Origin: Thermoplasmata archaeon
GTDB lineage: Archaea > Thermoplasmatota > Thermoplasmata > Lutacidiplasmatales > UBA184
Direction of reading: 5' to 3'
Length of the DNA: 64,000 nt
NCBI GenBank assembly: GCA_035507575.1
Contig: DATJNY010000006.1
Coordinates: forward strand, 1,930-65,929
The notes under the pieces were generated by a model. The model made no database searches, was not told where the DNA came from, and worked only from the letters and a program-made list of their open reading frames with translations. The number at the start of each line of letters is the position of its first letter. Positions within the stretch are counted from its first letter, which is position 1. Below are positions 4,338-63,501 of this stretch, in pieces. Made by a program: the position numbers and the translations under genes.

Positions 4338-4360
4338 CGTGCGCCCACGCGGACCGGACG

Positions 4361-4435: not shown

Positions 4436-4460
4436 CGGCGGCCGCGCCCCCCTCCGCTCG

Positions 4461-8518: not shown

Positions 8519-10984
<2,466 letters not shown>

Positions 10985-14961: not shown

Positions 14962-14991
14962 CGGAATCCCCGGCGCGCGGAGGCCGGCGGC

Positions 14992-14999
14992 ATATTAAG
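14992..14999 (-). promoter_or_regulatory. Putative TATA box (CTTAATAT on the minus strand) for sucCD
   Basis: About 35 nt upstream of the sucC ATG at 14961. Confidence 0.35.
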
Positions 15000-18104: not shown

Positions 18105-18208
18105 GGGTCGAAGCGCTCGCGCCCGTCGGTCCGAAGGTCGGGGGGCGCCTATTAGCCCCGCGGCGAGCGACTCCGCGGCTTAAAGAGTCCGGACCGCTCG
18201 CGACGCCG

Positions 18209-32000: not shown

Positions 32001-35000
32001 GGCGAGACGGAGCTGTTCGAGTACGACGCGATCGGCGAGAACTGCACCGGAATGTTCGCGGCCGGCGCGCCGTTCGCGGCGAGCGTGACCGAGACCGTCG
32101 CGGTCGGAACGAGCGTCAGGTTCGTCGCGAACGTCGAGCTCGGGCCGCTGATCACCACCCGCACGCCGGCGGACCGCTCGGAGGTGCCGGGCAAGGTCGC
32201 CACGAGCGTGTAGTTGCCGGGCGGGAACCCGGAGAGGGTGAAGTTGCCGGTCGCGTTCGTCGTGTTCGTCTGGGAGAATCCGCCGGCGCTCGAGAGCGAG
32301 ACGACCGCCCCGTTCGCGAGGGAGCCCGAGCTCAAGTACACCTTCCCCGACACGCCTCCGGCCCCCAGCCCCGCCGTCGCGTTGGTCGGGACGGCCGGCG
32401 TCACCGTCAGGTCGGTCTCCGTGTAGTTGTAGCCGCCGAAGAGGACGTTGTAGTGGTAGATCCCCGGCGGAACGTTCGTGAGCGAGAACGCTCCGCTCGC
32501 GTCGGTCGTCACGGTGATCTTGGAGAGGTTGGTCGATCCCCACAGCACGACCTTCGCGTTCGAGAGGAGCGGATCCGTGGAGACGTAGGCGGAGTTGTTC
32601 GCCGTGTTGTAGTAGACGAAGCCCGAGACGGAGCCCGCCGGGACCGTGATCAGCTCCTGGATGCTCGGGGCGTCGAACGAGAGGCCGAGCGCGTTCGAGA
32701 CGGTGATGTTCACCTGCTTGAGGAGGATGTTGCCCTGCTGGCTCAGCCCCTCGAACGTGCCGGTCGTCACGTTGATGCTGTCGTTCCCGGGGGGGAGGAC
32801 CAGCGAGAAGGCGCCGTCCGGGGCGGTGACCGCGGTCATGTGCGGGATGCCCCACTGGTCGAAGACGGTGACCCGCGCGCCGCCGACGGGCGCCCCGTTC
32901 GGCAGGCGGACGTCCCCGAAGACGGTCTGGCCGGGGTAGTACTGCAGCATCGACTCCCCGCCCTCGAAGTACATCGTCGCCGAGGTGTTGGCGACCCCGA
33001 CGCCGGCGGCCTGCTGCGCGAGCGCCTGCCACTGGTTCGTGGCGACGAAGCAGCTCGGGTCGGTCTTCGCCTGGGTCGCGTTGTCGCAGTAGTACGCCGT
33101 CTTGTAGACGACCTCGAAGTGCTGGAGCATCCAGCCGGGCTCGACCGGGTCGCTGATCAGCGATCCCTCGAGACCCGGGATCCCCGCCGACTCCCCGATG
33201 TCCGTCCCGTTGTACCCGAAGTACGTCCGGTAGATCATCGAGTTGTAGAACGGCGCGAAATAATTGATGTAGTAATTCACGGGAGTCACGTCGGCGGGGA
33301 CCGAGCCGAGCGGGTAGTAGTTCCCGTCGGAGCCCAGCACGGTGACGTTGAAGTACGTCGTGGGGACGCCGGCCGAGTCGATGATGCGGCCGGTCAGGTC
33401 GGCGGGCGCGTAGTAGATGCCCGTATCGGTGCCGCTGAACGGGATGAGCCGGCTGTCCGCCATGTCGTAGCGGACCGACCATCCCGTGTACGCCTGGACG
33501 TCGTCGTAGATCTTCGCGACGCCGCTCAGCGTCTGCGAGGTCGCGATGAAGTACGACACCGCCATGTACATCGCGTTCTGCGCGGTCAGCGTGTTCGGAT
33601 TGACGGGCAGGTAGCGGTCGGGATGCGCGACCACGAGGCCGACGTCGGAGCTCTGGTTCGCGAGGAGGTTGTGGAGCTGCGTGAGGTTGAGCCCGTCGCT
33701 CGAGAGGATCGTGTTCAGCCCCGCGGGTAGGTACGTCGCGCCGGATTTCGTCTGCTCGGCGGAGAGGAGGGTCGTCGTGAGGATCGCGATCGCGTTCGAC
33801 TCGTTCTGCGCCAAGAGGAACTGGCCGGCGGGGTCGATTCCGTTCTGGAAGTTGTCCGCGACGGACGGATGGTTGCCCTGATCGATCGCCTGGAAACCGT
33901 AGTCCCACCAGCTCACGAACGCCGGACGTTGGGAGACCGGTACGTTCGTATCCTGTTGGGCGAGCCAATTGTAGCCGGCGCTATCGTACTGGTTCGACGT
34001 GTCGATCGAGGTCCCCGCGGCACCGAAGTAGTTCCCGCTCGTCGATTGATTCCCTTTGAGGAACGACGGGAGGGTGTCGTAGACCTGCGACGAGAGCGCG
34101 GTCTTCGTGTTGCCCGGGATCCCCGCGTCGATCGACACCCAGACGTTGGGGAGCACGACGACGAGGACGACGAGGAGGACCAGCACGTGGCGAGGCTTGA
34201 ACGCCTTGCGGAAGGCGGCGGCCTGGCTGCGCCGATCGGAGAGCGAGGCGACGGTCCGCCGGAGTTCCGGGTAACTCCCGACGTCCAGCGCGCGCTTGAT
34301 CGCTTCCGCCGGCAGGAGCGCGAACGCGGGAGAACCGAGCAGGAAGAACTTCGCGGCCGAGATCGGCAGATAGATGGAGAGCACCGCGAAGACGAGGAAG
34401 ACGACGTGCCAGCGCTTGAAACGCCCCTTCGCGAGCGTGTAGATGAAGATCGCGAGGCCCGCGAACGCGAGGAAGAACGTGACCACCCCGTAGCCCACGA
34501 CGAGCTCGTCGATCGACGGCGCCTGGGCCTCGGCGACGGTCGAGTAGATCAGGGTCTTCGCGAAGTATCCCTGCCCCGTGACGATGTTGACGAAGTACGT
34601 CGGTTCGAAGACCGCGAGGAATGCGGCCGCGGCGACGACGAGGAGCCCCAGGGCGGGGATCGAGAAGACCCACGGTACGTCCCGCAACAGAAGGAACGGC
34701 AGCAGCAGGACGAGGACTCCGAAGAACAGCAGGAGCGGCAGGTCGAACCAGGTCGCGAACTGGTGTTGGACGAGGTAGTACGGGATCGCCATCGGGAACC
34801 CGACGAGCCCGACGATCCAGGTCACGACGTACAGCCCGAAGGAATCGACGTGGCGGATCCGCTCCGCGATCATCGCGATGAAGATCGAGACGCCGATCAC
34901 CGCGACGGCGTACGTGTACCCCTGCCAGGCGAGGGCGAGCGCCCCGAGGCAGACGCCGGTGAACACCGCCCATTTGACCGCCGTGCGTTCGGTCCGGAGG

Positions 35001-35641
35001 AACGCCCGTAACCCCGGAAGGTACTGGGACGGGTGGCGGTAGCTCTCGATCCACCGACGCGATCCGACCGCCTTGACGGTCCGGATGTAGGCGTAGATCG
35101 TGATCAGGATCACGAAGGTGTAGAACGAGAGATAGTTCGCGTAGCCGAAGATCGAGGAGTCGATGTTCGCGCTCAAGAACGGGAAGATCAACGCGGCGAT
35201 GAGACCCATGCGCTTCCCGCTGACCTCCCGGCCGATCAGGTAGACCGGGAACACGCCCAGCGCGGCCCAGAGCGGGGCCTGGAGATCGAGGAACCACGCC
35301 CCCGCCGCGACGGCGTTGCCCCCGAACGCCGGAGCGAAGACGATCCCGAGGACCGCGTTCATCCAGTCGAACAGCGGCTCCCGGGGATTGTACCCCCCGT
35401 AGGGATAGTGGAGCAGGGGATCGAAGACGAGATTCTGGTGGTTCAGGATGATGTACGTCGTGACGCGCGAGTGGTAGTAGGAGTCCGAGCCGCCCGCGTA
35501 GCTGAACAGCGGGCCGAACTGCTGGATGATCGGGTACGTCCAGATCGTTCGGATGGCGAACGCCATCCCGAACGCGGCGAGCAGAATGGCGACCGTCCAC
35601 CCGTGACGATGCCACCAACCCGTCTGAGTCGACTCCATCAC
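29045..35641 (-). CDS. aglB: Archaeal oligosaccharyltransferase AglB (STT3 family) with a C-terminal surface-domain extension of about 1300 aa
   Basis: It has a polytopic N-terminal core with GGSDSYYH and the WWDYG catalytic motif (33896..33910). From about residue 905 there are tandem beta-sandwich repeats, then CARDB/NEW3-like NTGNVP segments, and a C-terminal TM anchor (IPLLSFVPAIALVLGVITYRWW). Confidence 0.9.
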   Translation of the reverse strand: MMESTQTGWWHRHGWTVAILLAAFGMAFAIRTIWTYPIIQQFGPLFSYAGGSDSYYHSRVTTYIILNHQNLVFDPLLHYPYGGYNPREPLFDWMNAVLGIVFAPAFGGNAVAAGAWFLDLQAPLWAALGVFPVYLIGREVSGKRMGLIAALIFPFLSANIDSSIFGYANYLSFYTFVILITIYAYIRTVKAVGSRRWIESYRHPSQYLPGLRAFLRTERTAVKWAVFTGVCLGALALAWQGYTYAVAVIGVSIFIAMIAERIRHVDSFGLYVVTWIVGLVGFPMAIPYYLVQHQFATWFDLPLLLFFGVLVLLLPFLLLRDVPWVFSIPALGLLVVAAAAFLAVFEPTYFVNIVTGQGYFAKTLIYSTVAEAQAPSIDELVVGYGVVTFFLAFAGLAIFIYTLAKGRFKRWHVVFLVFAVLSIYLPISAAKFFLLGSPAFALLPAEAIKRALDVGSYPELRRTVASLSDRRSQAAAFRKAFKPRHVLVLLVVLVVVLPNVWVSIDAGIPGNTKTALSSQVYDTLPSFLKGNQSTSGNYFGAAGTSIDTSNQYDSAGYNWLAQQDTNVPVSQRPAFVSWWDYGFQAIDQGNHPSVADNFQNGIDPAGQFLLAQNESNAIAILTTTLLSAEQTKSGATYLPAGLNTILSSDGLNLTQLHNLLANQSSDVGLVVAHPDRYLPVNPNTLTAQNAMYMAVSYFIATSQTLSGVAKIYDDVQAYTGWSVRYDMADSRLIPFSGTDTGIYYAPADLTGRIIDSAGVPTTYFNVTVLGSDGNYYPLGSVPADVTPVNYYINYFAPFYNSMIYRTYFGYNGTDIGESAGIPGLEGSLISDPVEPGWMLQHFEVVYKTAYYCDNATQAKTDPSCFVATNQWQALAQQAAGVGVANTSATMYFEGGESMLQYYPGQTVFGDVRLPNGAPVGGARVTVFDQWGIPHMTAVTAPDGAFSLVLPPGNDSINVTTGTFEGLSQQGNILLKQVNITVSNALGLSFDAPSIQELITVPAGSVSGFVYYNTANNSAYVSTDPLLSNAKVVLWGSTNLSKITVTTDASGAFSLTNVPPGIYHYNVLFGGYNYTETDLTVTPAVPTNATAGLGAGGVSGKVYLSSGSLANGAVVSLSSAGGFSQTNTTNATGNFTLSGFPPGNYTLVATLPGTSERSAGVRVVISGPSSTFATNLTLVPTATVSVTLAANGAPAANIPVQFSPIASYSNSSVSPIASLQAAAVNGTTVLTGPNGVATASLPLGNYSVSALGFVGATLYAGLGEIAASSLTPNAATAITLTPAIRLSGSVATASGASSSTPTAVLAYTSAGDPVVTWAASGAYAFYLPAGSYSVLALQGSNASGSTVYAALGSVALAYPTALNLVPSTSVAARFFVGTTAGTTPGLAAAGARVTVSAGSAGPSVTALADSSGIAAVYVPQALPLSATAYCVSAGLVGFVPSSECGISPTGLAAMSKFPLSLTTVPTTITVTGVPSGTSITLNLTAESVTAVNRTLIGGPSWTTGLPPGTYSISGFAGTGNGSLQYRPTAPGSITIAFGAVVASTSFTLVSQTNSTGTISLLTGAVLGATNVTLSSAGFHTTVNGTAYTKGFFAPPGSYSAYATTRSGSTAYSVLVPVTISATGKVTPSLALTTVGYTLSGTLHDPYGELVSVSAVATLTAPSGATALVPVENGTFSATLPGAATYAVSLTARQEVASSTGNYFEDWVSEPGASCTLGSSGASCSVPVVGSTELVWLNGTLSATGVPGLISGTLRIYGPSTAPALSVTTSANGSFALRVLPGRYSLYAAGGGGSEPLAGFASVTVSAAASAPVSILLAPTWAASIAIAPPSGASLLAPANVTVTNAFGVVAQYQNVSPSGGLLVALPVGTYTLHASSYGLPNGLPADANASATVKVVSGNVGVTLDLTYQYVYRTNATIVGATSATVTSPGTASFAFTIRNTGNVPVTVTPVGSPSYWGFTYSFSNVTLQPGPAGKSVSGNVVIQVPANTAATHPGVVISFELANGTSIGSISPTVTVVPFYGIGVGATTSSPPQIGISHALVPFYLANTGNVPETVTLSVVDAARIAVLGWQVGFRSVSGPLANPTVSIAAFTNSTYSVNLTATSSIFTPVGHVTVQASVVNHSGSYQASTTIAVPTASITTGNSNGTAPVTVTGPSIGSPPSGLPDWVIPLLSFVPAIALVLGVITYRWWRSRRWVRR
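29150..32929 (-). repeat. Protein-level tandem repeats (carboxypeptidase-regulatory-like beta-sandwich units) within the aglB extension
   Basis: About ten recurrences of the pattern G-x-F-x-L-x(2-4)-P-[PA]-G-x-Y (for example DGAFSLVLPPGN, SGAFSLTNVPPGIYHY, TGNFTLSGFPPGNYTLVA, NGSFALRVLPGRYSLYAA, LLVALPVGTYTLHAS). Boundaries are approximate. Confidence 0.6.
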
Positions 35642-35769: not shown

Positions 35770-36297
35770 TCAGTCGACCGCCCGGAAGCGGTAGAACCAC
35801 CGACCGTCGCCGAGCGCGTACGGCTCGACGCGCACGCGATCGCCCACGTGGAGCCCGGTCCACGCCCGACCTTCGATCCGCCCGAAGAGCCGGAGCGGCG
35901 AGCCGTCCAGGTCGACGAGCCCGACCGCGAACGGGACCTCCGCCTCGAGGCCGAGCGGGGCGCCGCCCAGGACGGCGCTGAACGCGTAGATCGTGCCCGT
36001 CTCGGGTAGGTCGGCCCAGTCGAGATCCTCGGTATGACACGTCGGGCAGGCGGTCCTCGGCGGCCAGTGCCACGCGTCGTCCTTCCGGCAGCGGGTGGTC
36101 GAGAGCCGACCCTCCCGGAGTCGGTCGTAGAACCGGGAGAGCCGCGTTTGGTCCGCGCCTTCGAGCGGGAAGAAGTCCAGGAGGAACGGTCGCTTCTCCT
36201 TCGGGCGGTCGGGAGCCGGGGCGGTTCGCGCTTCGTCCGACCCGGCGGGAGGGGGCCCGGACGGCGCGGTACGACGGGCGCGCACTTCGGCGCTCAC
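35770..36297 (-). CDS. DUF35 OB-fold / Zn-ribbon protein (thiolase partner), paralogue A
   Basis: The GTG at 36297 overlaps the thiolase stop (GTGA). It has an OB-fold C-terminus (GTIYAFSAV...VGLVDLDG...RVRVEP). The Zn ribbon is partly degenerate (RC...CPTCH), and there is an N-terminal extension of about 50 aa. Confidence 0.75.
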   Translation of the reverse strand: MSAEVRARRTAPSGPPPAGSDEARTAPAPDRPKEKRPFLLDFFPLEGADQTRLSRFYDRLREGRLSTTRCRKDDAWHWPPRTACPTCHTEDLDWADLPETGTIYAFSAVLGGAPLGLEAEVPFAVGLVDLDGSPLRLFGRIEGRAWTGLHVGDRVRVEPYALGDGRWFYRFRAVD

Positions 36298-37478
36298 GAG
36301 GCGCGCCCTCCCTGGTAGACCATGACGGAGTGGACGTTCGCGCTCCCCGACAGGTTGTGGACGAGCGCCCACTCGGGGTCGGGGACCTGGCGCGCCGTCG
36401 GCACCTCCTTCGCGAACTGCCGGTAGACCTCCGCGGCCTGGGCGATCCCCGTCGCGCCGAGCGGATGGCCGCATCCGAGCAGCCCTCCGCGGGGATTCAC
36501 CACCAGGTCGCCGCCCAGGTCGCCGCGGCCGTCCGCGGCGAACGCCCCTCCTTCGCCCGGGGCGCAGAGACCGAGGGCCTCGTATTCGACGATCTCGGAG
36601 ATCGTGAAGCAGTCGTGGATCTCCGCGAAATCGACGTCGTGGATCGAGATATGCGCCCGACCGAGCGCTTCCCGGGCCGCATGGGTCAGTCCCGTCCACT
36701 GCGTGAGCGACCCCGCGTGGGCGAGGTTGTGGAAGTCCGAGTACTGCCCCGTACCCCGGACCCAGACGGGGGAGTCCGTGTATCGCCGGACGAGCTCCTC
36801 GCCGACGAGGACGACCGCCGCTGCGCCGTCCGTCATGGACGAGCAGTCGCCGAGCCGAAGCGGCGGAGCGACGACGGGGAGGCCGAGGAGCTTCTCGACG
36901 GAGAACTGCTTCGAATAGAACTGGGCGTGCGGGTTCGTGTTCGCGAACCGGTGATTCTTCGCCGAGACGGCGGCGAGTTGCTCGGGGGTGGTGCCGTATT
37001 CGAGCATGTGGCGTTGCGCGACCATCGCGAAGAACGGGGGCGCCGTCGCGCCATGCGGGCCGTCCCACGGCCGGTCCATGACGCATCCCATGGCGGTGTT
37101 CGCCTCGGGCATCGACGGGAGATTCATCTTTTCCACCCCGACCGCGACCGCGACGTCGGAGAGGCCGGAGGCGATCGACGCGTAGGCGGAGCGGATCGCG
37201 CTCTGCCCCGAGGCGCAGGCGAGTTCCGTCCGCTGGATCACCCGGTGCGGTCGCAGACCCATCTGCTCGGCCGCGAGCGGTGCGACGTGCGACTGGAACG
37301 CGAACCGCTCGGGTTCCGCGGCGCCGACGAACAGCGAGTCGACGTCCTCCGCCCGGAGCGCCGGCATCGCCCGGAACAGCGCGGCTCCGACCTCCTGCGC
37401 CATCTCGGGCCAGGTGGTGGGACGGACCCCAAATACGGTGGTCGCGGCGCCGACCAGGGCGACTCCCCGACCGCTCAT
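36294..37478 (-). CDS. Thiolase (SCP2/archaeal type), paralogue A, catalytic motifs intact
   Basis: ELACASG (Cys88, codon 37215..37217), EIHDCFTIS and [10 protein letters not shown] are all present. The ATG at 37478 overlaps the upstream stop (ATGA). Confidence 0.85.
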
Positions 37479-38608
37479 CGGGCCTCCTCGCGCAGGGCCC
37501 GGAGGACCAGGTCGCCCGCGCCGCTCGTCGTCACCGTGCCGCCCTGGTCGTAGGTTCGGGCCGCGCCGCTCTGGAGCACGGCCGCGAGCGCCCGTTCCAA
37601 CCGGTCCGCCGGCCCCGTGAGACGAGCGTCCTGGTGCTGCCCGCCGAGCCACCGGAGCATCTGCTCGAGCGCGAAGAACGTCGCGAACGGATTGACCTGA
37701 TTCTTGCCGGCGTACTTCGGGGCGCTACCGTGGACCGGCTCGAACATCCCGTGCCCGGCGCCGATGTTTCCCCCCGACGCGAAGCCCATCCCGCCCTGGA
37801 GCACCGCGGCGAGGTCCGTGATGATGTCCCCCATCATGTTCGTCGCGACGACGACGTTGTAGCGCTCGGGGTTCCGGACCAGCCACTGCGTGAACGCGTC
37901 GACGTACGCGTAGTCCCGTTCGATCTCGGGAAACTCCGTCGCGACCCGATCGAACGTCTCGCGGAAGAATCGGCATCCCTCCATCACGTTCGACTTGTCG
38001 ACACACGTGACGCGCCGCACCCCGTCGCCCGGGGCGCCACGCGCCCGGGCCCGCGCCAGCTCGAAAGCGTAACGGATCACCCGCTCCGCCCCCTTCCTCG
38101 TGATGATCCGCGTGTCGATCGCGACCTCGGTCTCGTCCGCGCGTCGCAGTCGTCCGCGCGCCGGCGTGTAGAGGTCCTCGGTGTTCTCCCGGACGATCAC
38201 CATGTCGACGTTCTTGGGCGACCAGACCTCCCGGTACTCTCCGCTGATCCGGTGCTGGACGCCGGGATACAACCGGCACGGCCGAACGTTCGCAAACAGG
38301 TCGAGCGACTCCCGGAGACCGAGCACGAGCGCCCGCCCCGCGATGTCCCCGTTGGGGAGCGTCGCGCCGGGCCATCCGACGGCCCCGAGCAGGATGGCGT
38401 CGGCGCGATGCGCCGCCGCCTGACCCTCGGGATCCCACTCGCGCCCCGATCGAAGGTAGTACTGGCCCCCTCCCGCGTACTCCGTCGCGTGCCAGGGCGC
38501 CGGTCCGGACTCAGCGAGGGCCGCGAGGACTCGCTGGCCCTCCCGGACGACCTCCGGGCCGGTCCCGTCGCCCGGGAACACCGCGATCTCGTAGCCCGCG
38601 TCCTTCAT
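37475..38608 (-). CDS. Beta-decarboxylating dehydrogenase (3-isopropylmalate / homoisocitrate / isocitrate dehydrogenase family)
   Basis: [22 protein letters not shown] and [12 protein letters not shown]...GFASGGNIG motifs. 377 aa. Confidence 0.85.
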
Positions 38609-39132
38609 GGAGCGGCGGGTGCGGCCGCCTTCCGCGCGGCGAGTTCCGCCCGCACCTTCTCCACGAGCCCCCCGGCGTCCAGGAGGCCGAGAAGATGGGG
38701 CGGCAGCGGGGGGAACGTCACGGAGGCTCCGGTGCGGACGTTGGTGATCCGCCCGGCGCGCATCTCGAGCCGGGCGGTGTCCCCCTTCTCGAAGATCGCC
38801 CGGACCCCGCGCGCCTCCACGGTCGGGATCCCGAGATTGATCGAGTTCCGGAAGAAGATCCGCGCGAAGGAGTCGGCGACGACCGCGCCGACCCCCGCCG
38901 CCTTCATCGCGGCGGGCGCGTGCTCGCGGCTCGACCCGCATCCGAAGTTCTCGTCGGCGATGATGATGTCTCCGGGTCGGGCGTTCGCCGCGAACTCGGG
39001 CAGGGCGATCTCGAATACGTGAAGCTTCAGCTGCTGCGGATCGATGATGGTCAGGTACTTTCCGCCGATGATCCCGTCGGTGTCGACGTCCTTGCCGAGC
39101 GTCCAGACGCGCCCTTCGATGACGTCCTGCAC
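38605..39132 (-). CDS. Aconitase-family isomerase small subunit (LeuD / homoaconitase small subunit type)
   Basis: [22 protein letters not shown] and [13 protein letters not shown] motifs. 175 aa. Confidence 0.85.
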
Positions 39133-39141
39133 GTGCGCCCC

Positions 39142-40425
39142 CTAGGCCAGCTCTCGGTGATCGATGATCTCGCCCCGGATCGCGGCCGCCACGGTCGCCG
39201 CCGGCGACATGAGGTAGATCCGCGCCTCCTTGGCGCCCATCCGGCCCGGGAAGTTTCGGTTCGAGGACGACGCGCAGACCTCCTCCGGAGCGAGGATCCC
39301 CATGTTCCCCCCGAAGCAGGCCGAGCAGCTTGAGTTCGTGAATACCGCCCCCGCCTCGGTGAACGTCTCTACGATCCCTTCCCGCAGACACTGCTCGTAG
39401 ATCGAGGTGGATGCGGGCGAGACGATGAATCGCACCCCCTTCGCGACCTGGTGGCCCTTCATCAGGGCGGCGCCCTCGCGGAGGTCCTCGATCCGCGCGT
39501 TGGTGCACGAACCGAGGAACACCTGATCGACCTTGATGTGCTCCCGCGCCACCTCCGGCAACGGCCGCACGTTGTCCGGCGAGTACGGGCAGGCGACCAT
39601 CGGCGGCATGCCGTCGAGGTCGATGTCGACCACGCGCTCGTACTCGGCATCCGAATCGGCGTGCAAGGGATGCATCGCGTGCTTGGCGACCGGGGCGAGA
39701 TAGTCGAACGTCTTCTGATCCGGCTCGACCATCCCGCACTTCGCCCCCATCTCGGTGGTCATGTTGCAGATCGTGAACCGCTCGGGCATCGACAGGGCGC
39801 GGATCGCCGGGCCCGTGAACTCGACGGCCTTGTAGGTCGCGCCCGTCGTCTTGATCTCGCCGAGCACGCGGAGCACGAGGTCCTTCGCCGTCACGCCGGG
39901 GGCGAGCGAGCCGCGTACGCGGATCTGGATCGTCGGAGGTACCTTGAGCCAGAGTTGCCCGAGCGCGAGGACGGCGGCCATCTCGGTCGGGCCGACGCCG
40001 GCGGCGACCGCGCCCATGGCGCCGAGCATGTTCGTGTGGGAGTCGGTCCCGACCGCGAGGTCCCCCGGCACCACCCAGCCGTTCTCGGCGAGGATCTGGT
40101 GGCAGATGCCGTGACGACCGACGTCGTAGAAGTGGGGGAGGCCGGTCTCGGCCGCAAACTTTCGAAGGATGCGATGGAGGACCGCCGCTCCCTCCGTCGA
40201 CGCCGGCACCCAGTGATCGATCGCGATCACGACGCGCTCGGGGTCCCAAACGCGCTCGGCCCCCATCTGGTGGAACGGCCCGACCGTCTGGGCGCCCTGT
40301 TCGTGCATCATCGCGAGATCGACAGTTCCTTCCACGATCTCTCCGGGCACGACCCGCTCCGCCCCCGACGCCCGAGCGAGGATCTTCTCGGCGAGCGTGA
40401 GGCCGTGGCCGTTCGAGCGCGTCAT
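39142..40425 (-). CDS. Aconitase-family isomerase large subunit (LeuC / homoaconitase large subunit type)
   Basis: VAIDHWVP, GTDSHT, GSCTNARIEDL and NSSCSACFGG motifs. 427 aa from the ATG at 40425. Confidence 0.9.
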   Translation of the reverse strand: MTRSNGHGLTLAEKILARASGAERVVPGEIVEGTVDLAMMHEQGAQTVGPFHQMGAERVWDPERVVIAIDHWVPASTEGAAVLHRILRKFAAETGLPHFYDVGRHGICHQILAENGWVVPGDLAVGTDSHTNMLGAMGAVAAGVGPTEMAAVLALGQLWLKVPPTIQIRVRGSLAPGVTAKDLVLRVLGEIKTTGATYKAVEFTGPAIRALSMPERFTICNMTTEMGAKCGMVEPDQKTFDYLAPVAKHAMHPLHADSDAEYERVVDIDLDGMPPMVACPYSPDNVRPLPEVAREHIKVDQVFLGSCTNARIEDLREGAALMKGHQVAKGVRFIVSPASTSIYEQCLREGIVETFTEAGAVFTNSSCSACFGGNMGILAPEEVCASSSNRNFPGRMGAKEARIYLMSPAATVAAAIRGEIIDHRELA

Positions 40426-41669
40426 GCCGCAGGCGCCCCGATGCCGATCGCCTCGACCATCGTCCAGAACTCGTCGTCGGAAAGTCCGGGACGCTCGAAA
40501 AGGTGTCGGTATTCCCGGAGGAATCGATGGAGGTCCGCTTTCGAGCGGGACTCCGTGCTGGTCTTGATGCGTTGCAGGAGCTCGAGCAGGAGCGGGTCCG
40601 GCGCCGCGAATCCCCGTTCCTTGAGCTTTTCGACGACGGCCGCCTTCCCGGTATGTTTTCCGAGGATCATCTGGCGGCGAGCGCCGACGGTCTCGGGTTG
40701 CAGCGGCTCGTAGGTGAGGGTGTTCGCGAGGATACCGTGGGTGTGGATCCCCGCTTCGTGGGAGAACGCGTTGTACCCCACGAGGGCCTTGTTGGCGGCG
40801 ACCGGGATGCCCGAAAGGTCCTCGACCAGTCGGGAGAGCTCGGTGAGCCGTTCGGTCCGGATCCCCGTTCGGATCCCGTAGAGCGCCTCGAGCTCCACGA
40901 CGACCTCCTCGAGCGAGGCGTTGCCGGCGCGCTCGCCCAGGCCGTTCACGCAGACGTGCGGCGCCCGAACTCCGCATTCGAGCGCGGTGAGGGTGTTGGC
41001 CGCGGCCAGTCCGAGATCGTCGTGGCAGTGGACGGAGAGGTCCTTCGGCTGCACTCGACGCTGGAACTCGCGCAAGTACCACCGGAACGTGAGCGGCGTC
41101 ATGATCCCGACCGTGTCCGCGACGACGAGGCGATCCGCGCCCGCGTCCTGGACCTCCCGATAGAGCCGTTCCACGAAATCGAACGGCGCCCGCACCGTGT
41201 CCTCGGTGACGAACGCCGTGTGGAGCCCCGCCTCCTTCGCCTGCCGGACCGTCTTCAGCGACGCGGCCAGCACCTCCTCCTGGCTCATCTTGAGCTTGTA
41301 CCGGAGGTGGACCTGGCTCGCGGCCACGAAGATCGCGATGTGGCTCGCGCCGCTGCGGATGACCGCGTCGACGTCGGCGGGAACCGTGCGCGCCGCGGCG
41401 AGGATCTTCGTCTTCAGTCCCGACGAGGCGAGCAACCGGACCGCGCGCGCCTCCTCCTCGGAGACGACGGGGATCCCCGCATTGACGACGGAGACGCCGA
41501 TGTCAGCGAGGATCGTCGCGACCTCGAGCTTCTCTTCTGGCGAGAAGTGCACGCCGGGCGTCTGCTCCCCGTCGCGCAGCGTCTCATCCCAGAAGACGAT
41601 CGGGTCCGGGATCTCCCGCTCCCGGGCCGTCTCGGTGTGGTAGTTCTCTACGAGGCGGGGCTCCGCCAT
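40422..41669 (-). CDS. 2-isopropylmalate / homocitrate / citramalate synthase family protein, short form without the LeuA regulatory domain
   Basis: DETLRDGEQ and HCHDDLGLAAANT motifs. At 415 aa it has no room for the LeuA-type C-terminal dimerisation/regulatory domain. Confidence 0.85.
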   Translation of the reverse strand: MAEPRLVENYHTETAREREIPDPIVFWDETLRDGEQTPGVHFSPEEKLEVATILADIGVSVVNAGIPVVSEEEARAVRLLASSGLKTKILAAARTVPADVDAVIRSGASHIAIFVAASQVHLRYKLKMSQEEVLAASLKTVRQAKEAGLHTAFVTEDTVRAPFDFVERLYREVQDAGADRLVVADTVGIMTPLTFRWYLREFQRRVQPKDLSVHCHDDLGLAAANTLTALECGVRAPHVCVNGLGERAGNASLEEVVVELEALYGIRTGIRTERLTELSRLVEDLSGIPVAANKALVGYNAFSHEAGIHTHGILANTLTYEPLQPETVGARRQMILGKHTGKAAVVEKLKERGFAAPDPLLLELLQRIKTSTESRSKADLHRFLREYRHLFERPGLSDDEFWTMVEAIGIGAPAA

Positions 41670-41827
41670 CGACCGCTTCTACCCGACGGCAGCGCTTAAC
41701 TCTTGGGCCGGCGCACCGTCCGGTCCCCGCCGGCCGGTCCGATTCCGGCGCGCGCCCGCCTGATGAGTTAAATACGCTCCGGTACTCGAACCGGATACAA
41801 GTCGACCTCGACCTGTTTCTGGAGACC

Positions 41828-43621
41828 ATGACGACTCCCGCTGCGCATACCACCCCGCTGGTCGCCGAGTCCGGCCCCGCGGGCGCTCACCCACCTGCCG
41901 AATTGACCGACCTCAGCGTGATGATCGGAGGGCAGGGTGGGGACGGGACGCTCACCGTCTCGGACCTCCTCGGCCGGTACTTCCGGAAGAACGGTCTCTA
42001 CGTCTACACCTCGCGCAATGTCCTCTCGCGCATCCGAGGGGGACACGCGGACGCCTCCGTTCGCGCCTCGCGGGACCCGGTCTCCGCCGTGAAACCCCAG
42101 GTCGACGTCCTGGTCGCCTTCGACAACGAGGCGGTCGAGATGGGTCGGGCGGAGATGGCCGGCCACGGCTACATCATCTACGACTCGACCGCGTTCCACG
42201 TCGACCTGCCGAACGCCTCCGGATTCCCGTTCGCGACGATGGTCGGCGGGCCGCTCGGCCAACCGATTTTCAAGAATACCGCGGCGTACGGCGCGCTCTC
42301 CGTCCTGCTCGGTTTCGACCCCGTCAAGACCCGGGAAGTGATCGAAGAGCGGTTCAAGCGGCGCGGGGGCGAAGCGCTCGAGAAGAACCTGAAGGCGCTC
42401 GAGATCGGGCGGAAGGCGGCGCTCGAAGCGCCCGGCGTGGCGGGCCGGTTCAGCGTCGCCGAGGGCGACGCCCACGATCTGATCCTGACCACGGGGAACC
42501 AGGCCGTCGCACTCGGCTTCGTCGTCGGCGGCGGGCGGTTCTTCGCGGGATATCCGATCACCCCGGCAACGGAGGTGATGGAGTACCTCCAGCGGTACCT
42601 CCCCGCCTTCGGCGGCATCGTGCGCCAGGCGGAGGACGAACTCGCCGCGGTCAACATGATCATCGGTGCGGCGTACGCGGGCACCCGGGTGATGACGAGC
42701 ACGAGCGGTCCGGGCCTCTCGTTGATGACGGAAGGCATCGGCCACGCCGGCACCGCCGAGATCCCGATCGTTGTCGCCGACTGCCAGCGGGTCGGCCCGA
42801 GCACCGGTCAGCCGACGCGCCACGAGCAGTCGGATCTCTCCCACCTCGCGAACCTCGGGCACGGGGAGTATCCCCGGTTCATCGTCGCGCCGTCGAATCC
42901 CGAGGACTGCTTCCAACTCACGATCGACGCCCTCAACCTCGCCGAAAAGTGGCGGGTGCCGGTGATCCTGCTGCTCGACCAGGCGCTCTGCCAGAACACC
43001 ACCACGAGCGCGCGATTCGACCTTTCGGGCGCCCGCGTCGATCGCGGCAAGCGCATCACCGCCACCGACACCGCGCAACTCACGGAGTACAAGGCCTACA
43101 AGTTCACGGACGACGGGATCAGCCCGTACGCGGCGCCCGGCACTCCGGGTCTCTGGGCCGAGATCACCGGCAACGAGCACGACGAGTGGGGCCACGTGTC
43201 GGTGAACGCGACGAACCGGGTGAAGATGATGAAGAAGCGAATGGGCAAGATGCAGGCGGCGCGGGACGAGTTGCCCGCGTCGCGCCTGTTCGGCGACCCC
43301 CGGGCGAAGATCGGTCTGATCGGCTACGGGAGCACGTCGGGCCCGATCCTCGAGACCCAGTCGATCCTCGCCGCGCGCGGTGTCCCGACCCGGTACCTCC
43401 AGGCGCGCACCGTTTACCCGGTCCCGGTGCACGAGCTCGACCCGTTCCTCCAGTCCGTCGACGTCGCGTACGTCATCGAGCACAACTACACGGGACAGTT
43501 CGCGCGACTCCTGCGGGAGCACCTTCCGTGGCACCACGCGAAGTTCCGCTCGATCCTCAAGTACGACGGCTACACGTTCCGCACGCCGCAGATCATCGGC
43601 GAGATCAAGGAGGCGGCGTAG
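41828..43621 (+). CDS. 2-oxoacid:ferredoxin oxidoreductase alpha subunit (fused gamma-alpha type)
   Basis: The N-terminal gamma-like domain has IGGQGGDG and the alpha domain has FAGYPITPATE. 597 aa. A GGAG Shine-Dalgarno-like element lies upstream, and a GAGTTAAATA box about 55 nt upstream. Confidence 0.85.
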   Translation: MTTPAAHTTPLVAESGPAGAHPPAELTDLSVMIGGQGGDGTLTVSDLLGRYFRKNGLYVYTSRNVLSRIRGGHADASVRASRDPVSAVKPQVDVLVAFDNEAVEMGRAEMAGHGYIIYDSTAFHVDLPNASGFPFATMVGGPLGQPIFKNTAAYGALSVLLGFDPVKTREVIEERFKRRGGEALEKNLKALEIGRKAALEAPGVAGRFSVAEGDAHDLILTTGNQAVALGFVVGGGRFFAGYPITPATEVMEYLQRYLPAFGGIVRQAEDELAAVNMIIGAAYAGTRVMTSTSGPGLSLMTEGIGHAGTAEIPIVVADCQRVGPSTGQPTRHEQSDLSHLANLGHGEYPRFIVAPSNPEDCFQLTIDALNLAEKWRVPVILLLDQALCQNTTTSARFDLSGARVDRGKRITATDTAQLTEYKAYKFTDDGISPYAAPGTPGLWAEITGNEHDEWGHVSVNATNRVKMMKKRMGKMQAARDELPASRLFGDPRAKIGLIGYGSTSGPILETQSILAARGVPTRYLQARTVYPVPVHELDPFLQSVDVAYVIEHNYTGQFARLLREHLPWHHAKFRSILKYDGYTFRTPQIIGEIKEAA

Positions 43622-43622
43622 G

Positions 43623-44489
43623 ATGGTGCAGTCGGCGAAACCCGTCGCCCCGATCTGGTGCCCCGGCTGCGGGGACTTCAGCCTGCTCGCGGCCGTGAAG
43701 AAGGCCGCCGCGAACCTGAAGATCCCGACGCACGACCTGGTCCTCGTCGGCGGGATCGGCTGTTCGGGGTCGATCCACAACTTCCTCGAGGTCAACGGGA
43801 TCCACGCGCTGCACGGTCGACTCCTCGCCCAGGCGGTCGGCGTGAAGCTCGCCAACCCGGATCTGACCGTGGTCGCCGCCGGGGGCGATGGCGACGGCTA
43901 CGCGATCGGGATGGGGCATTTCATGCACGCGTTCAAGAAGAACGCCTCGATCCTCTACATCGTGATGAACAACGAGACGTACGGGCTCACGAAGGGCCAG
44001 CCGTCCCCCACGAGCCAGATCGGCTTCGAGGGGAACGTCGAGGCCCCGTTCGACGCGATCCTGAGCGCGCTGTCGATCCCGGCGCCGAACTTCATCGCCC
44101 GCACGTTCTCCGGCGACCCGAAGACGATGACCGCGGTGCTGGAAGAGGCGATCCGGTTCAACCACGAGCGCCGCGGCTTCGCGTTCGTCGAGGATCTCTC
44201 GCCGTGCGTGACGTACAACGACACGTACAAGCTCTGGCGCGAGAAGGTCGTCGACGTCTCGAAGCTCCCCGGATACGACCCGACCGACCGCAAGACGATG
44301 TTCCGGCTCTACCTCGAGACGACCGAGAGCGGAAAGATCCCGATCGGCGTGATGCACCGTCCGAAGGAGACGGTCCGCGCAGGTCTCGAGACGAAGCTGC
44401 TCGGCGAAGCGAAGGGACCGGCGCGGTCCGAGATCGCCGTCGAGCCGAACCTCGCGGCGTACCAGAAGCTCCTCGCCGGGCTCGCGTAG
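43623..44489 (+). CDS. 2-oxoacid:ferredoxin oxidoreductase beta subunit (TPP-binding)
   Basis: WCPGCGDF, GIGCSG and GGDGDGYAIG motifs. The ATG at 43623 lies 2 nt after the alpha-subunit stop. Confidence 0.9.
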   Translation: MVQSAKPVAPIWCPGCGDFSLLAAVKKAAANLKIPTHDLVLVGGIGCSGSIHNFLEVNGIHALHGRLLAQAVGVKLANPDLTVVAAGGDGDGYAIGMGHFMHAFKKNASILYIVMNNETYGLTKGQPSPTSQIGFEGNVEAPFDAILSALSIPAPNFIARTFSGDPKTMTAVLEEAIRFNHERRGFAFVEDLSPCVTYNDTYKLWREKVVDVSKLPGYDPTDRKTMFRLYLETTESGKIPIGVMHRPKETVRAGLETKLLGEAKGPARSEIAVEPNLAAYQKLLAGLA

Positions 44490-60082: not shown

Positions 60083-60760
60083 GTGGAAGCCGAGATCCGT
60101 GAGAAGATGGCGGGGGAGGTCGTCCTCTCTCCCCATCCCGGCCGAACCCTTCGAAAGTGGAGGGAGGACTTCGGGATCTCCCAACGGGACCTCGCGAAGC
60201 ATCTACAGACCGTCCCCTCGGTGATCAGCGACTACGAGTCGGAGCGGCGCGTCAGCCCCGGAGCGGGCTTCATCCGACGGTACGTCGACGCGCTCATCGC
60301 CGTGGATCAGGACCACGGCGGCAAGGTCGGCCAGCGTCTCGGCATGCACGCGCATTCCGACGGCATCCTGGGGATGCGGGAGTTCGCGGTCGCGATCCCG
60401 CTGAAGTCGTTCGCCGACCGGCTCGAGGCTCGCTCGGTCGGACGCGTCGACCTGCACCGGGACATCCATGGCTTCACGATCCTCGACGCGCCGCGCGCGA
60501 TCCTATCGATCGACGCCTCGCACTTCGTGGAAGTCTACGGATGGACGACCCAGCGGGCGCTCATCTTCTCCAACGTGAAGTACGGCCGCTCCCCGATGGT
60601 CGCGATCCGCGCCCACCCGCTCAAGCCCGCCGCGGTCGTCTTCGCCAACCCGGGTCGGGTCGACGCGCTCGCGATCCGTCTCTCCGAGGTTGAGAACATC
60701 CCCCTCCTGGTCACGAGCCTCTCCGCGCCGGCCGTACTGGAACGGCTCGAGGAGCTCTAG
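60083..60760 (+). CDS. HTH (XRE-like) transcriptional regulator with a C-terminal domain (COG1395-like)
   Basis: The HTH region is ISQRDLAKHLQTVPSVISDYESERR. The GTG at 60083 lies 28 nt downstream of a TTTATA box (60053..60058). An alternative ATG is at 60107. Confidence 0.6.
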   Translation: MEAEIREKMAGEVVLSPHPGRTLRKWREDFGISQRDLAKHLQTVPSVISDYESERRVSPGAGFIRRYVDALIAVDQDHGGKVGQRLGMHAHSDGILGMREFAVAIPLKSFADRLEARSVGRVDLHRDIHGFTILDAPRAILSIDASHFVEVYGWTTQRALIFSNVKYGRSPMVAIRAHPLKPAAVVFANPGRVDALAIRLSEVENIPLLVTSLSAPAVLERLEEL

Positions 60761-60778
60761 GCATACCGAGGAACCACA

Positions 60779-61831
60779 ATGGACGCAGGAATCGTCAGCT
60801 ACGGTGCGTACGTCCCGAGATATCGGATCACGCCGGCGGAGATCGGGCGAGTCTGGGGCGCCGACGGCGAAGGAATGGGCCAGGGGCTCAACGTGCATCG
60901 CAAGAGCGTGCCCGCCCCCGACGAGGACACGATCACGATCTCGACGGAAGCGCTTCGGACCGCCCTCATCCGCGGGGCGATCGACCCGCAGCAGATCGGG
61001 GCGATCTACGTCGGCTCGGAGTCCCACCCGTACGCGGTGAAGCCGACCGCCACGGTGGTCGCGCAAGCGGTCGGGTCGACACCGAACCTCACCGCCGCCG
61101 ACTTCGAGTTCGCCTGCAAAGCCGGCACCGCCGCGATCCAGACCTGCCTCGGCCTTGTCGGGGCGGGGATGGTGAAGTACGGCGTCGCGATCGGCAGCGA
61201 CACGAGCCAGGGCGCGCCGGGCGACGCGCTCGAATACTCCGCGAGCGCCGGAGGCGCCGCGTTCGTCATCGGCCGGGACCACGTCATCGCGCGGGTCGAG
61301 CAGACTCTCTCCTACACCACGGACACGCCCGACTTCTGGCGGCGCGAGGGCCAGCGGTATCCGAGCCACAGCGGGCGCTTCACCGGCGAGCCGGCGTACT
61401 TCCGTCACGAGACCGAGTGCGCCCGCCGCATCATGGAGGTCGCGGGCACCTCGCCCAAGGACTACCGCCACGTCGTCTTCCACCAGCCGAACGGCAAGTT
61501 CCCCCAGCGCGTAGGAAAGCAGCTCGGGTTCAACGAAGCGCAGATGCGCTACGGCCTCGTCACCCCGTACATCGGCAACACCTACTCGGGGGCCGCGCTG
61601 ATCGGCCTCGCGAACGTGCTCGACCACGCCGGGCCCGGCGAGCGGATCCTCATGGTCGGCTACGGCTCCGGCGCCGGATCCGACGCCTTCGACCTCACGA
61701 CCACCGAGGAGATCGCCCGGTTCGACCGCTCCTTCGGCCGCCCCGTCCAGACGTACCTCGACAACGGCGTCGAGCTCTCGTACGGGGTCTACGCGAAGTA
61801 CCGCGGGAAGATCCACATGGGAGGCAGCTGA
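60779..61831 (+). CDS. Hydroxymethylglutaryl-CoA synthase (archaeal type)
   Basis: The catalytic contexts are intact: GSESHPY (Glu), FEFACKAGT (Cys) and [10 protein letters not shown] (His). 350 aa. Confidence 0.9.
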
Positions 61832-61833
61832 CC

Positions 61834-63003
61834 GTGCGCGACGTCGCCGTGCTCGGCGTCGGCATGACGAAGTTCGGCGAGCTGTGGGACCGCTCGTTCC
61901 GGGAGATCGGGATCGAGGCGGGGCTCCAGGCGCTCGTCGATGCCCGACTCTCTTCGGGAGACCTCGGCGCGCTCTATCTCGGCAACATGGCCTCGGGCTC
62001 GCTGATCGACCAGGAGCACATCGGCCCGCTCATCCTCGACTACGCCGGTCTCGGATCCCGGCACCTCCCCGCGGTCCGGGTCGAGGGAGGCGGCGCCTCG
62101 GGCTCGCTCGCCCTGCACGCCGGCTATCTCGCCGTCGCGAGCGGGCAATACGACTTCGTGGTGGTCGGCGGCGCGGAGAAACTCACGGACGTCCCCGACG
62201 CGACGGGCAACCAGATCACCAGCGCCGCGGCCGACCATGAGTGGGAGGTCGTCTTCGGCGCGACCCTACCGGCGCTCTGGGCGTTGATCGCCCGCCGGCA
62301 CATGCACCAGTACGGCACCACGCGCGAGCAGCTCGCCCGCGTCGCGGTGCACGCGCACGAGATGGGGTCGAAGAACCCCAACGCGCACTATCGCAACAAG
62401 GTCACCCTCGAGCAGGTGCTCGGGGCCGGCCCGGTCGCCGAGCCGCTCGGCGTGTTCGATTGCGCCCCGCTCTCCGACGGGGCGGCGGCGGTCGTGCTCG
62501 GCCCCCTGGACGTCGCGAAGGAGCACACCGACCGACCGGTGCGGATCCTCGCGAGCGAGGTCGCGTCCGACACGATGGCCGTGCAGCACCGCCGGGACGT
62601 GACCACGCTCGACTCCACCGTCATCGCCGCCCGTCGCGCCTTCGAGCGCGCGCGGCGAGCGCCGGCGGACGTCGACGTCGCGGAGATCAACGACGCCTAC
62701 ACGATCAGCGCCCTGCTCGCGCTCGAGGACCTCGGGTTCTCCGAAAAGGGCCGCGGCGGCTTCGACTTCGCGACCGGTCGATATGGGCCCGGCGGCGAGG
62801 TGGCGATCAACATGTCCGGCGGCCTGAAGGCCCAGGGACGGCCGTTCGGCGCGGTCGGCGTGGCCCAGATCGTCGAACTCGTCCGCCAGCTCCGGGGCGA
62901 GGCGAAGGACCGCCAGGTGGCGGACGCCTCGATCGGACTCGCCCACGACGTCGGGGGGACCGGCGCGACGAGCGTGGTCACCCTCCTGGAGCGGACGAAC
63001 TGA
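61834..63003 (+). CDS. Thiolase-fold protein, paralogue B, catalytic fingerprints degenerate (possible pseudoenzyme)
   Basis: The GTG at 61834 is 3 nt after the HMGCS stop, with full-length thiolase similarity. However, it reads VEGGGASGS (Gly87 in place of Cys), EINDAYTIS (in place of HDCF) and QGRPFGAVG (in place of GHP). Confidence 0.85.
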   Translation: MRDVAVLGVGMTKFGELWDRSFREIGIEAGLQALVDARLSSGDLGALYLGNMASGSLIDQEHIGPLILDYAGLGSRHLPAVRVEGGGASGSLALHAGYLAVASGQYDFVVVGGAEKLTDVPDATGNQITSAAADHEWEVVFGATLPALWALIARRHMHQYGTTREQLARVAVHAHEMGSKNPNAHYRNKVTLEQVLGAGPVAEPLGVFDCAPLSDGAAAVVLGPLDVAKEHTDRPVRILASEVASDTMAVQHRRDVTTLDSTVIAARRAFERARRAPADVDVAEINDAYTISALLALEDLGFSEKGRGGFDFATGRYGPGGEVAINMSGGLKAQGRPFGAVGVAQIVELVRQLRGEAKDRQVADASIGLAHDVGGTGATSVVTLLERTN

Positions 63004-63012
63004 GGGGGGCCC

Positions 63013-63501
63013 ATGTCGATCGCACGTTTCTGGCGTGAGACCCCCCGGCGGTACAACCTCGGCGGATCGAAGTGCACGATGTGCGGGACCGTCTACTTCC
63101 CGCCCCGCTCGGTCTGCCCGACCTGCGCGCATCATCGCGAGTCGATCGGGAAGATGGTACCGTTCCAGCTCTCCGGCGACGGCGAGGTGTTCTCGTTCAC
63201 CATCGTCCACGAGCCGGCGGAAGGGTTCGAGATGCAGGTCCCGTACATCCTCGCCCTGGTCCGCACCGTCGAAGGACCCATCCTCACCGGCCAGGTCGTC
63301 GACCTGCTCCCCGACGAGGTCCGGATCGGGCTCAAGGTCCGGGCGACGTTCCGCAAGCTGCGGGAAGAGGGGAAGGCCGGCGTCATCCACTACGGGTACA
63401 AATTCGCCCCCGCCGACGACCTCCCTTCGCTCCCGCCCGGCGGCCCGAGGGCCGCGGCGGAGGCCTCGACTCGCGCCGAGGGCGACCGGGCACCGGCGTG
63501 A
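63013..63501 (+). CDS. DUF35 OB-fold / Zn-ribbon protein (thiolase/HMGCS scaffold), paralogue B
   Basis: A complete ribbon (CTMCG...CPTCAH) and an OB-fold (EVFSFTIVHE...ILALVRT). 162 aa. Confidence 0.85.
   Translation: MSIARFWRETPRRYNLGGSKCTMCGTVYFPPRSVCPTCAHHRESIGKMVPFQLSGDGEVFSFTIVHEPAEGFEMQVPYILALVRTVEGPILTGQVVDLLPDEVRIGLKVRATFRKLREEGKAGVIHYGYKFAPADDLPSLPPGGPRAAAEASTRAEGDRAPA

Follow-up and report, generated by a model that had tools for sequence, protein, structure and literature searches.

Can a thiolase that has lost its catalytic cysteine still provide the first step of archaeal isoprenoid lipid synthesis, and if it cannot, what is its gene kept for? The question is raised by a gene, here called thiolase B, in a stretch of 64,000 nucleotides from a Thermoplasmata archaeon of soil (contig DATJNY010000006.1; 69.8% G+C), the whole of which is referred to as the window. 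Thiolase B lies between the genes for HMG-CoA synthase (HMGCS) and a DUF35 protein (DUF35-B). Its full-length best match to the thiolase of the Methanothermococcus complex (PDB 6ESQ_A/6ET9) and its position between these two genes make it a true orthologue of that enzyme. However, the residues that carry out the thiolase reaction are missing, and the gene is under purifying selection. Thiolase B is thus probably a pseudoenzyme, retained as a subunit for the structure and the CoA site of HMGCS, with acetoacetyl-CoA supplied by another thiolase, in this organism paralogue A with its partner DUF35-A.

The expectation for such an operon is different. The complex of thiolase, HMGCS and DUF35 has been described as near-universal in archaea and as their means of driving, by channelling, the unfavourable reaction with which isoprenoid lipid synthesis begins, and the archaeal complexes were described in 2026 as uniformly performing both Claisen condensations (PMC12960953).

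The thiolase of the HMGCS operon has no catalytic residues

The three genes are arranged head to tail on the plus strand (60779..63501). The features of interest are:

60779..61831, plus strand: HMGCS with intact catalytic residues (NCBIfam PRK04262, 537 bits; TIGR00748, 523 bits)
61834..63003, plus strand: thiolase B, a putative pseudo-thiolase without catalytic residues, orthologue of the Methanothermococcus complex thiolase
62092..62094, plus strand: codon GGC for Gly87, aligned with the nucleophilic Cys (Cys85 in 6ESQ_A)
62689..62700, plus strand: codons AAC GAC GCC TAC for Asn286-Asp-Ala288-Tyr289, replacing His-Asp-Cys-Phe
62839..62841, plus strand: codon CGG for Arg336, replacing the GHP His
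63013..63501, plus strand: DUF35-B, zinc ribbon and OB fold (Pfam zf-ChsH2, OB_ChsH2_C)

The reading frame of thiolase B (389 aa) runs from a GTG start at 61834, with GGAGG upstream, to a TGA stop at 63003. The gaps to its neighbours are only 2 nt on the HMGCS side, where the start follows the HMGCS stop, and 9 nt on the DUF35-B side. All codons, coordinates and residues that the initial annotation had given for thiolases A and B proved correct.

Thiolase B was compared with all PDB sequences by phmmer. The thiolase of M. thermolithotrophicus, 6ESQ_A, matches residues 1-386 (E = 1.5e-108, 366 bits), and the three fingerprints align as rveaaCasgs with rveggGasgs, aevHdCfai with aeiNdAyti and aaGHalGatG with aqGRpfGavG. 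In the catalytic columns, Cys is thus replaced by Gly, His by Asn, Cys by Ala and His by Arg, and the proposal that all three fingerprints are lost holds in the profile as well as in the pairwise alignment. Misalignment of these columns was considered and ruled out, as the phmmer alignment, the full-length NCBIfam matches and several MAFFT alignments concur. The protein has the Pfam domains Thiolase_N and Thiolase_C_1. It passes the cut-off of 420 bits of the subfamily model PRK06064 ("thiolase domain-containing protein") with 497.5 bits, and scores 497.4 bits, under the cut-off of 600, against NF053570 (AcCoTHIOL_METTL), an equivalog model built on the Methanothermococcus enzyme.

The fold appears to be preserved. 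An AlphaFold2 model of thiolase B (predicted TM-score 0.86; mean predicted local distance difference test score, pLDDT, 79) was matched by Foldseek to 6ET9_C with a TM-score of 0.90 at 47% identity. The pLDDT falls below 50 in residues 53-72 and 116-143 (~61990..62049 and ~62179..62262), and the model is confident elsewhere. These two loops may be modelled poorly due to the shallow alignment of 50 sequences, or they may become ordered only in the complex.

Conservation and selection in the soil clade

A scan of species-representative genomes yielded 80 loci, from metagenome-assembled genomes (MAGs) of soil and peat labelled Thermoplasmata, with thiolase B at 71-90% identity. Counts for this clade refer to 81 species-level orthologues. 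The Cys is absent in every one of them, as it is in the 120 closest homologues of thiolase B (80-100% identity), one of which, P0001 from a JGI contig, is 100% identical to it. Such a survey of related MAGs had been asked for in the initial annotation, and it shows that the substitutions are no assembly errors. The order and spacing of HMGCS, thiolase B and DUF35 are the same in all 80 loci (L001-L080) wherever the contig reaches the neighbours, and the reading frames of the orthologues have a length of 388-390 aa.

The former catalytic columns differ in how far they are fixed. Column 87, that of the nucleophile, is Gly in 80 orthologues and Asp in one; column 336 (GHP) is Arg in 76 and Gln in five; column 289, the Phe of HDxF, is Tyr in 78 of the 81. 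Column 286, the His of HDxF, is still His in 55 species, with Asn in 17, Asp in 8 and Phe in one, and has changed at least 10 times on the tree. Its entropy is above that of 82% of sites, whereas the neighbouring E284, D287, G335, P337 and G339 are invariant. The motif of the clade in this region is H/N/D-D-A/G/S-Y. Because the HDxF His persists in these 55 species, the state found in the window, with all three fingerprints lost, is the more decayed end of the spectrum within the clade.

Outside these columns the gene is well conserved: 125 of its 389 sites are invariant in the clade. The ratio of nonsynonymous to synonymous substitution rates (dN/dS; Nei-Gojobori, 71 species) is 0.21 for thiolase B, 0.15 for HMGCS and 0.27 for DUF35-B. 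Thiolase B is under purifying selection, and constraint is relaxed at the former catalytic His. The marks of a pseudoenzyme are therefore all present: indispensable residues are lost, selection is purifying, and fold and context are conserved.

Loss of the nucleophile in other archaeal operons

At the level of 50% identity clusters, the top matches to thiolase B comprised 137 full-length representatives. The Cys is absent in 45 of these, many of which are operon thiolases too, as judged from their gene contexts. The loci examined outside the soil clade included the following:

L082/L083, Thermoplasmata: Ser in the nucleophile column; divergently upstream of HMGCS, genes for a classical thiolase with Cys and for a 3-hydroxyacyl-CoA dehydrogenase
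L084/L085, Thermoplasmatota: Ser in the nucleophile column
L086/L087, Thermoplasmata: Ala in the nucleophile column
L088, Heimdallarchaeaceae: Asn in the nucleophile column
L089: Asp in the nucleophile column; operon among lipid genes

The Heimdallarchaeaceae operon (L088, 3956..6571) also has Asp for the GHP His, and its DUF35 protein gave no Pfam zinc-ribbon match. The order of genes in L089 (781..7540) is digeranylgeranylglycerophospholipid reductase, PcrB (of the geranylgeranylglyceryl phosphate synthase family), an iron-containing alcohol dehydrogenase family gene, HMGCS, thiolase, DUF35 and polyprenyl synthase. We take the dehydrogenase-family gene to be a candidate glycerol-1-phosphate dehydrogenase. 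A Cys-less thiolase is therefore retained even in what is plainly a membrane-lipid operon.

For a sample that does not depend on the thiolase, metagenome contigs were scanned with an alignment of HMGCS sequences that had the Methanothermococcus enzyme at its head. This gave 67 loci of the archaeal type at which HMGCS is immediately followed by a thiolase of nearly full length. The Cys is present in 46 of them (45 of which read CHCFH) and missing in the remaining 21, which have Gly (12), Ser (5), Ala (2) or Asp (2). This proportion of 31% comes from loci ranked by their similarity to one HMGCS and is thus no estimate for all archaea. The recurrent type G-H-N-F-D is that of the Methanomassiliicoccales. 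All 120 homologues of the thiolase of L104, a human-gut locus of this order, are Cys-less (74-93% identity), with Gly in 119 and Asp in the remaining one. Among them are those of Ca. Methanomassiliicoccus intestinalis and of the cultured M. luminyensis, whose sequence lies in a locus with the order HTH-HMGCS-thiolase-DUF35.

A neighbour-joining tree was calculated with the catalytic columns masked. Most Cys-less thiolases of Thermoplasmata cluster on it, with a bootstrap value of only 20%. Since the Asp-bearing operon thiolase L121 is nested inside a clade with Cys (bootstrap 96-97%), the Cys was lost independently at least twice, and probably more often. The loss covers a large part of the Thermoplasmata, including cultured Methanomassiliicoccus. 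The suggestion that the pathway is organised differently "in this lineage" was thus right in spirit but too narrow, as a large part of the class is concerned and the loss has recurred independently.

The residues that disappear together with the Cys were identified by comparing non-redundant operon thiolases, 23 with the Cys and 20 without. There are 122 columns with at least 90% conservation in the Cys-bearing set; 98 of these are still conserved to at least 80% in the Cys-less set, and only eight fall under 50%. Four of the eight are catalytic-motif columns (C87, C288, F289, H336). The other four are A132, F145, Y149 and S211, the last of which adjoins the conserved DC(S/A)P motif. No residue was gained convergently across the Cys-less operon thiolases in this comparison. 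Across Cys-less lineages, the nucleophile column contains Gly, Ser, Ala, Asp or Asn, and the GHP column Arg, Asp, Asn, Gln, Tyr, Phe or His. To judge from the alignments, this is the pattern of an active site that has been cleanly knocked out while the protein is still required for its structure and surfaces, and it argues against one shared new chemistry.

Thiolase-like proteins without the Cys were also seen elsewhere. In the PDB entry 4YZO ("thiolase-like protein" ST0096 of Sulfolobus tokodaii) the nucleophile column is Ser (RVDNTSGSGG), and a separate clade of Ser- or Pro-bearing thiolase-like proteins lies near it among the representatives. The one context of this clade that was examined (L175) is bacterial, from Anaerolineales, and has no HMGCS neighbour; the clade was therefore set aside as a different phenomenon. 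Cys-less thiolase-like proteins of the SCP2 type are thus common beyond the mevalonate operon.

The partner proteins are intact

The initial annotation had held that the HMGCS of the window keeps its Glu, Cys and His contexts and that DUF35-B keeps a complete zinc ribbon, and both statements are borne out. HMGCS matches 6ESQ_I with 481 bits, and the contexts GSESHPY, FACKAG, FHQPNG and GNTYSG, which hold Glu, Cys, His and Asn, are present. This tetrad is invariant in an alignment (A1) that included five operons with a Cys-less thiolase, and it is present in every Cys-less operon examined. DUF35-B, a free-standing protein of 162 aa, has the ribbon CTMC...CPTC and finds its best match in the DUF35 protein of 6ESQ (128 bits to 6ESQ_E). 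The CxxC...CxxC arrangement is found in 77 of 78 orthologues.

A change in HMGCS or DUF35 that might compensate for the loss was not found in the Cys-less operons, in which HMGCS retains 117 of 129 conserved columns and has no common gain; a few HMGCS columns are less conserved. An example is residue 41 (60899..60901), for which the window has Arg. At least 90% of the Cys-bearing operons have Glu here, but only 11% of the Cys-less ones do. Positions 18, 23, 294 and 332 behave similarly. This may reflect co-variation at the interface of thiolase and HMGCS, or at a shared CoA site.

A gene for a helix-turn-helix (HTH) regulator lies directly upstream of the operon:

60083..60760, plus strand: XRE-type HTH regulator (Pfam HTH_31, HTH_19, HTH_3)

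Homologous genes in the same position were seen in Methanomassiliicoccales, both in the human-gut locus L104 (2755..3483) and in L174, which is of the M. luminyensis type (4249..4932). The regulator has a C-terminal domain of ~150 aa that is conserved between soil Thermoplasmata and Methanomassiliicoccales, which suggests a dedicated regulator of the HMGCS operon.

Paralogue A and other possible sources of acetoacetyl-CoA

The intact paralogue reported at a distance of 25 kb is indeed present, with Cys88, HDCF and GHP. It belongs to a tightly coupled string of genes on the minus strand (35770..41474) that ends with thiolase A and DUF35-A:

~40434..41474, minus strand: protein like isopropylmalate synthase or homocitrate synthase (HMGL-like and HCS_D2 domains)
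39142..40440, minus strand: aconitase large subunit
38605..39132, minus strand: aconitase small subunit
37475..38620, minus strand: Iso_dh, whose stop overlaps the start of thiolase A (ATGA)
36294..37478, minus strand: thiolase A, intact SCP2-type paralogue, with Cys88 (TGC, 37215..37217), EIHDCFTIS and GHP
35770..36300, minus strand: DUF35-A, partner of thiolase A (Pfam zf-ChsH2, OB_ChsH2_C), translationally coupled to A by a GTGA overlap

Thiolases A and B share 36% identity in a nearly gapless alignment. With only 205 bits to 6ESQ_A, A is the more distant paralogue of the complex thiolase. Its C, HDCF and GHP signatures were matched in 117 of its 120 closest homologues; in the other three the pattern of the Cys region was unmatched, and none shows a substitution. 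The pairing of A with DUF35-A and the gene string are conserved in L090, L092, L093 and L176-L178. In a related genome, the orthologues of A and B are found 89 kb apart on one contig of 1.84 Mb.

DUF35-A has an N-terminal extension of ~50 aa and no complete CxxC...CxxC: the first CxxC is absent, and the sequence reads C-R-K-D...W-H-W...C-P-T-C-H. Its metal site may, as far as these motifs indicate, be of the Cys3His type found in the DUF35 domain of CtShy (PMC12329534). Directly downstream, a protein of 2198 aa (29045..35641, minus strand) combines an N-terminal STT3/AglB oligosaccharyltransferase domain with a long region rich in Ser, Thr, Ala and Gly that contains CarboxypepD_reg-like repeats; this arrangement is conserved in L090, L092 and L176.

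Thiolase-fold proteins in the window are limited to A, B and HMGCS. In the flanks of all fetched loci, additional thiolases were detected only at L082/L083. At L082, a classical type-II thiolase (2642..3811, minus strand; motifs VCGSG, NEAY, GHPLG and CLGGG) and a 3-hydroxyacyl-CoA dehydrogenase (1783..2628, minus strand) stand divergently beside an HMGCS whose operon thiolase has Ser for Cys. These two genes may stand in locally for the activity that was lost.

The window further contains a polyprenyl synthase gene (620..2224, plus strand) at ~58 kb from the HMGCS operon, as well as genes for a KatG-type peroxidase (8522..10984), succinyl-CoA ligase subunits (12950..14994), CoaBC (16797..18179) and a 2-oxoacid:ferredoxin oxidoreductase (41486..44486). 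Its 64 kb yielded no tRNA genes.

What the operon thiolase may do

The thiolase reaction requires an acetyl-Cys intermediate, and in the archaeal complex the exchange H284A in HDxF abolishes the formation of HMG-CoA (PMC12960953). Thiolase B should be without thiolase chemistry, because it has no nucleophile, the HDCF Cys and the GHP His are gone, and in the window the HDxF His is gone as well. It would be unable to form the acetyl-enzyme intermediate and would stay in the HMGCS/thiolase/DUF35 complex as a non-catalytic subunit. Operon conservation and purifying selection suggest that HMGCS, thiolase B and DUF35-B still assemble. In the description of 6ESQ (PMC6392133), CoA is bound at an interface to which each of the three proteins contributes residues. 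The body of thiolase B could thus help, together with DUF35-B, to build the CoA-binding site used by HMGCS. There is a precedent in the bacterial complexes PhlABC and MucABC, which keep a dead HMGS-like subunit and in which the active subunit does not suffice for catalysis by itself (PMC12960953). A separate, intact thiolase would make acetoacetyl-CoA, which the complex would take up from solution or by docking; the best candidate for the supplier in this organism is A with DUF35-A. We infer both the dependence of HMGCS on thiolase B for CoA binding and the role of A as the source. Loss of channelling should be viable, because free thiolases suffice in bacteria and eukaryotes.

Retention as a scaffold, with acetoacetyl-CoA from elsewhere, was among the readings offered in the initial annotation, and it appears to fit the evidence best. 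We favour it because thiolase B is under purifying selection, its catalytic columns were lost without a shared replacement, and A co-occurs with it. Several observations weigh against it. Co-occurrence of A and B was seen directly in only one other genome, five further pairs of A and B clusters being matched indirectly, through identical lengths of their longest contigs. The operon of A consists of chain-elongation genes of the leucine or homocitrate type, not of lipid genes. Gly87, Arg336 and Tyr289 are so strongly conserved in the soil clade that they could serve a new ligand-binding or catalytic role instead of merely filling the pocket. Moreover, the HDxF His is conserved in most other Cys-less lineages, which hints at a pocket that still binds a thioester.

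The last two points lead to a reading that we consider unlikely, though worth keeping in sight, namely that thiolase B now uses the old pocket for a new catalytic or ligand-handling task. One such task would be the decarboxylation of malonyl-CoA, known from KSQ proteins and TbSLP, by which HMGCS would be fed an acetyl-CoA enolate or an acetoacetyl unit. Others would be the binding and presentation of acetoacetyl-CoA, or a regulatory role as an acyl-CoA sensor for the complex. Besides the near fixation of the three residues in the soil clade, this would agree with the recurrent replacement of Phe by Tyr in HDxF in many Cys-less lineages and with the conservation of the HDxF His and the loops around it in most of them. 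The Cys-less TbSLP, entries of which (5AB6, 5AB7) were among the fold matches of thiolase B, binds acetoacetyl-CoA and malonyl-CoA and has a weak malonyl-CoA decarboxylase activity (PMC12329534). However, nothing was gained convergently in the independent Cys-less lineages, the variety in the nucleophile and GHP columns looks like drift and not like a shared mechanism, and the HDxF His itself drifts in the soil clade. In decarboxylases of the KSQ type, Gln replaces the active-site Cys and both catalytic His are kept. Thiolase B has neither the Gln nor the two His, and with Gly87, Asn286 and Arg336 it does not match the KSQ/CLF type. A wider form of the idea, to which we give little credence, is that Thermoplasmata (Methanomassiliicoccus included) and some other archaea enter the mevalonate pathway in a different way, in which the Cys-less subunit takes part as more than a passive scaffold. 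Malonyl-CoA could be bound or decarboxylated, or acetoacetyl-CoA held, so that HMGCS is given its C4 substrate in a thermodynamically favourable manner and without a thiolase. If this were true, archaea would begin the synthesis of their membrane lipids in at least two mechanistically distinct ways.

Other readings would keep thiolase activity closer to the complex. Thiolase B could be the inactive half of a heteromer with active A, similar to KS-CLF, in which the tether to HMGCS and DUF35-B preserves channelling. A and B occur together here and on the related 1.84-Mb contig, and both are thiolases of the SCP2 type, with the same length and hardly a gap in their alignment. With so low an identity between the two (36%), and with A coupled to its own DUF35-A in a different conserved operon, this is a rather improbable arrangement; other Cys-less lineages have a different neighbour (the classical thiolase at L082) or none in the flanks. 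It is very unlikely indeed that thiolase B still works as an acetoacetyl-CoA thiolase, be it through another nucleophile or through a non-covalent Claisen mechanism. The fold is intact and Cys210, within the motif FDCAP, offers one invariant Cys, but in the window the base and oxyanion residues (His and Cys of HDCF, His of GHP) are all gone, and the catalytic His drifts in the clade. Cys210 was rejected as a substitute nucleophile, since catalytically normal homologues conserve it to the same degree (MHCSP in 6ESQ_A, GDCSS in A). An assembly error or a pseudogene can practically be dismissed in view of the identical protein P0001, the 120 homologues and 81 orthologues, their intact frames of 388-390 aa and the dN/dS of 0.21.

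Comparison with known systems

Cys-less archaeal operon thiolases were not found described in full-text searches of the literature. In the databases such proteins are named "thiolase domain-containing protein" (NCBI) or, mostly, "acetyl-CoA C-acetyltransferase" (JGI). The closest known system is the Methanothermococcus complex, which has the same three genes in the same order and whose chains are matched with 481 (HMGCS), 366 (thiolase) and 128 bits (DUF35). It differs in that its Cys85, the His and Cys of HDCF and the His of GHP are absent in thiolase B, and the published channelling of the endergonic first step therefore cannot operate here.

If the operon thiolase is inactive across a large part of the class, the channelling model fails there and the source of acetoacetyl-CoA comes into question; genome reconstructions that count the gene as an acetyl-CoA C-acetyltransferase would mis-assign the step. 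The archaea affected include a cultured lineage of human-gut methanogens and abundant soil archaea. An inactive thiolase B would also be a natural pseudoenzyme kept for architecture, useful for understanding and engineering assemblies that form C-C bonds.

SCP2-thiolase folds that lack the Cys and have a DUF35 partner are known from the steroid side-chain aldolases Ltp2-ChsH2(DUF35) and Sal-Shy(DUF35), where Sal has Gly in its place (PDB 6OK1, 9MYR; PMC12329534). They resemble thiolase B in fold (TM-score 0.82-0.85) at an identity of only 24-28%. Both Ltp2 and Sal depend on the Tyr with which the motif YD[HC][FY] begins (PMC12329534), and the aldolases read YDHF or YDCY. Thiolase B has Asn at this position, and its clade His, Asn or Asp, with one Phe. 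In addition, the aldolases have their DUF35 as a C-terminal domain within a MaoC hydratase. DUF35-B stands alone, is orthologous to the DUF35 protein of 6ESQ and has no MaoC gene next to it. The proposal that thiolase B was repurposed as an aldolase of the Ltp2 type was rejected on these grounds. The trypanosomatid TbSLP (PDB 5AB4-5AB7) is a Cys-less SCP2-thiolase fold of uncertain function that binds acetoacetyl-CoA and malonyl-CoA. Unlike thiolase B, it has a YDCF motif, has no HMGCS or DUF35 partners and is eukaryotic; the identity is 26-27%.

Complexes of the same ancestry in which one dead thiolase-fold subunit is retained are PhlABC (PpATase), MucABC (SmaATase) and the ACAT/HMGS-DUF35 complex of P. 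fluorescens (PMC12960953; PMC6392133). PhlABC and MucABC represent the Friedel-Crafts acyltransferases. The bacterial complexes are the mirror image of the operon described here: their HMGS-like subunit is dead and has no E-C-H-N, and their ACAT-like subunit keeps the Cys. In the window it is HMGCS that keeps E, C, H and N, and the thiolase that is without the Cys. Furthermore, the bacterial complexes have left primary metabolism, whereas thiolase B resides in the canonical archaeal operon for entry into the mevalonate pathway.

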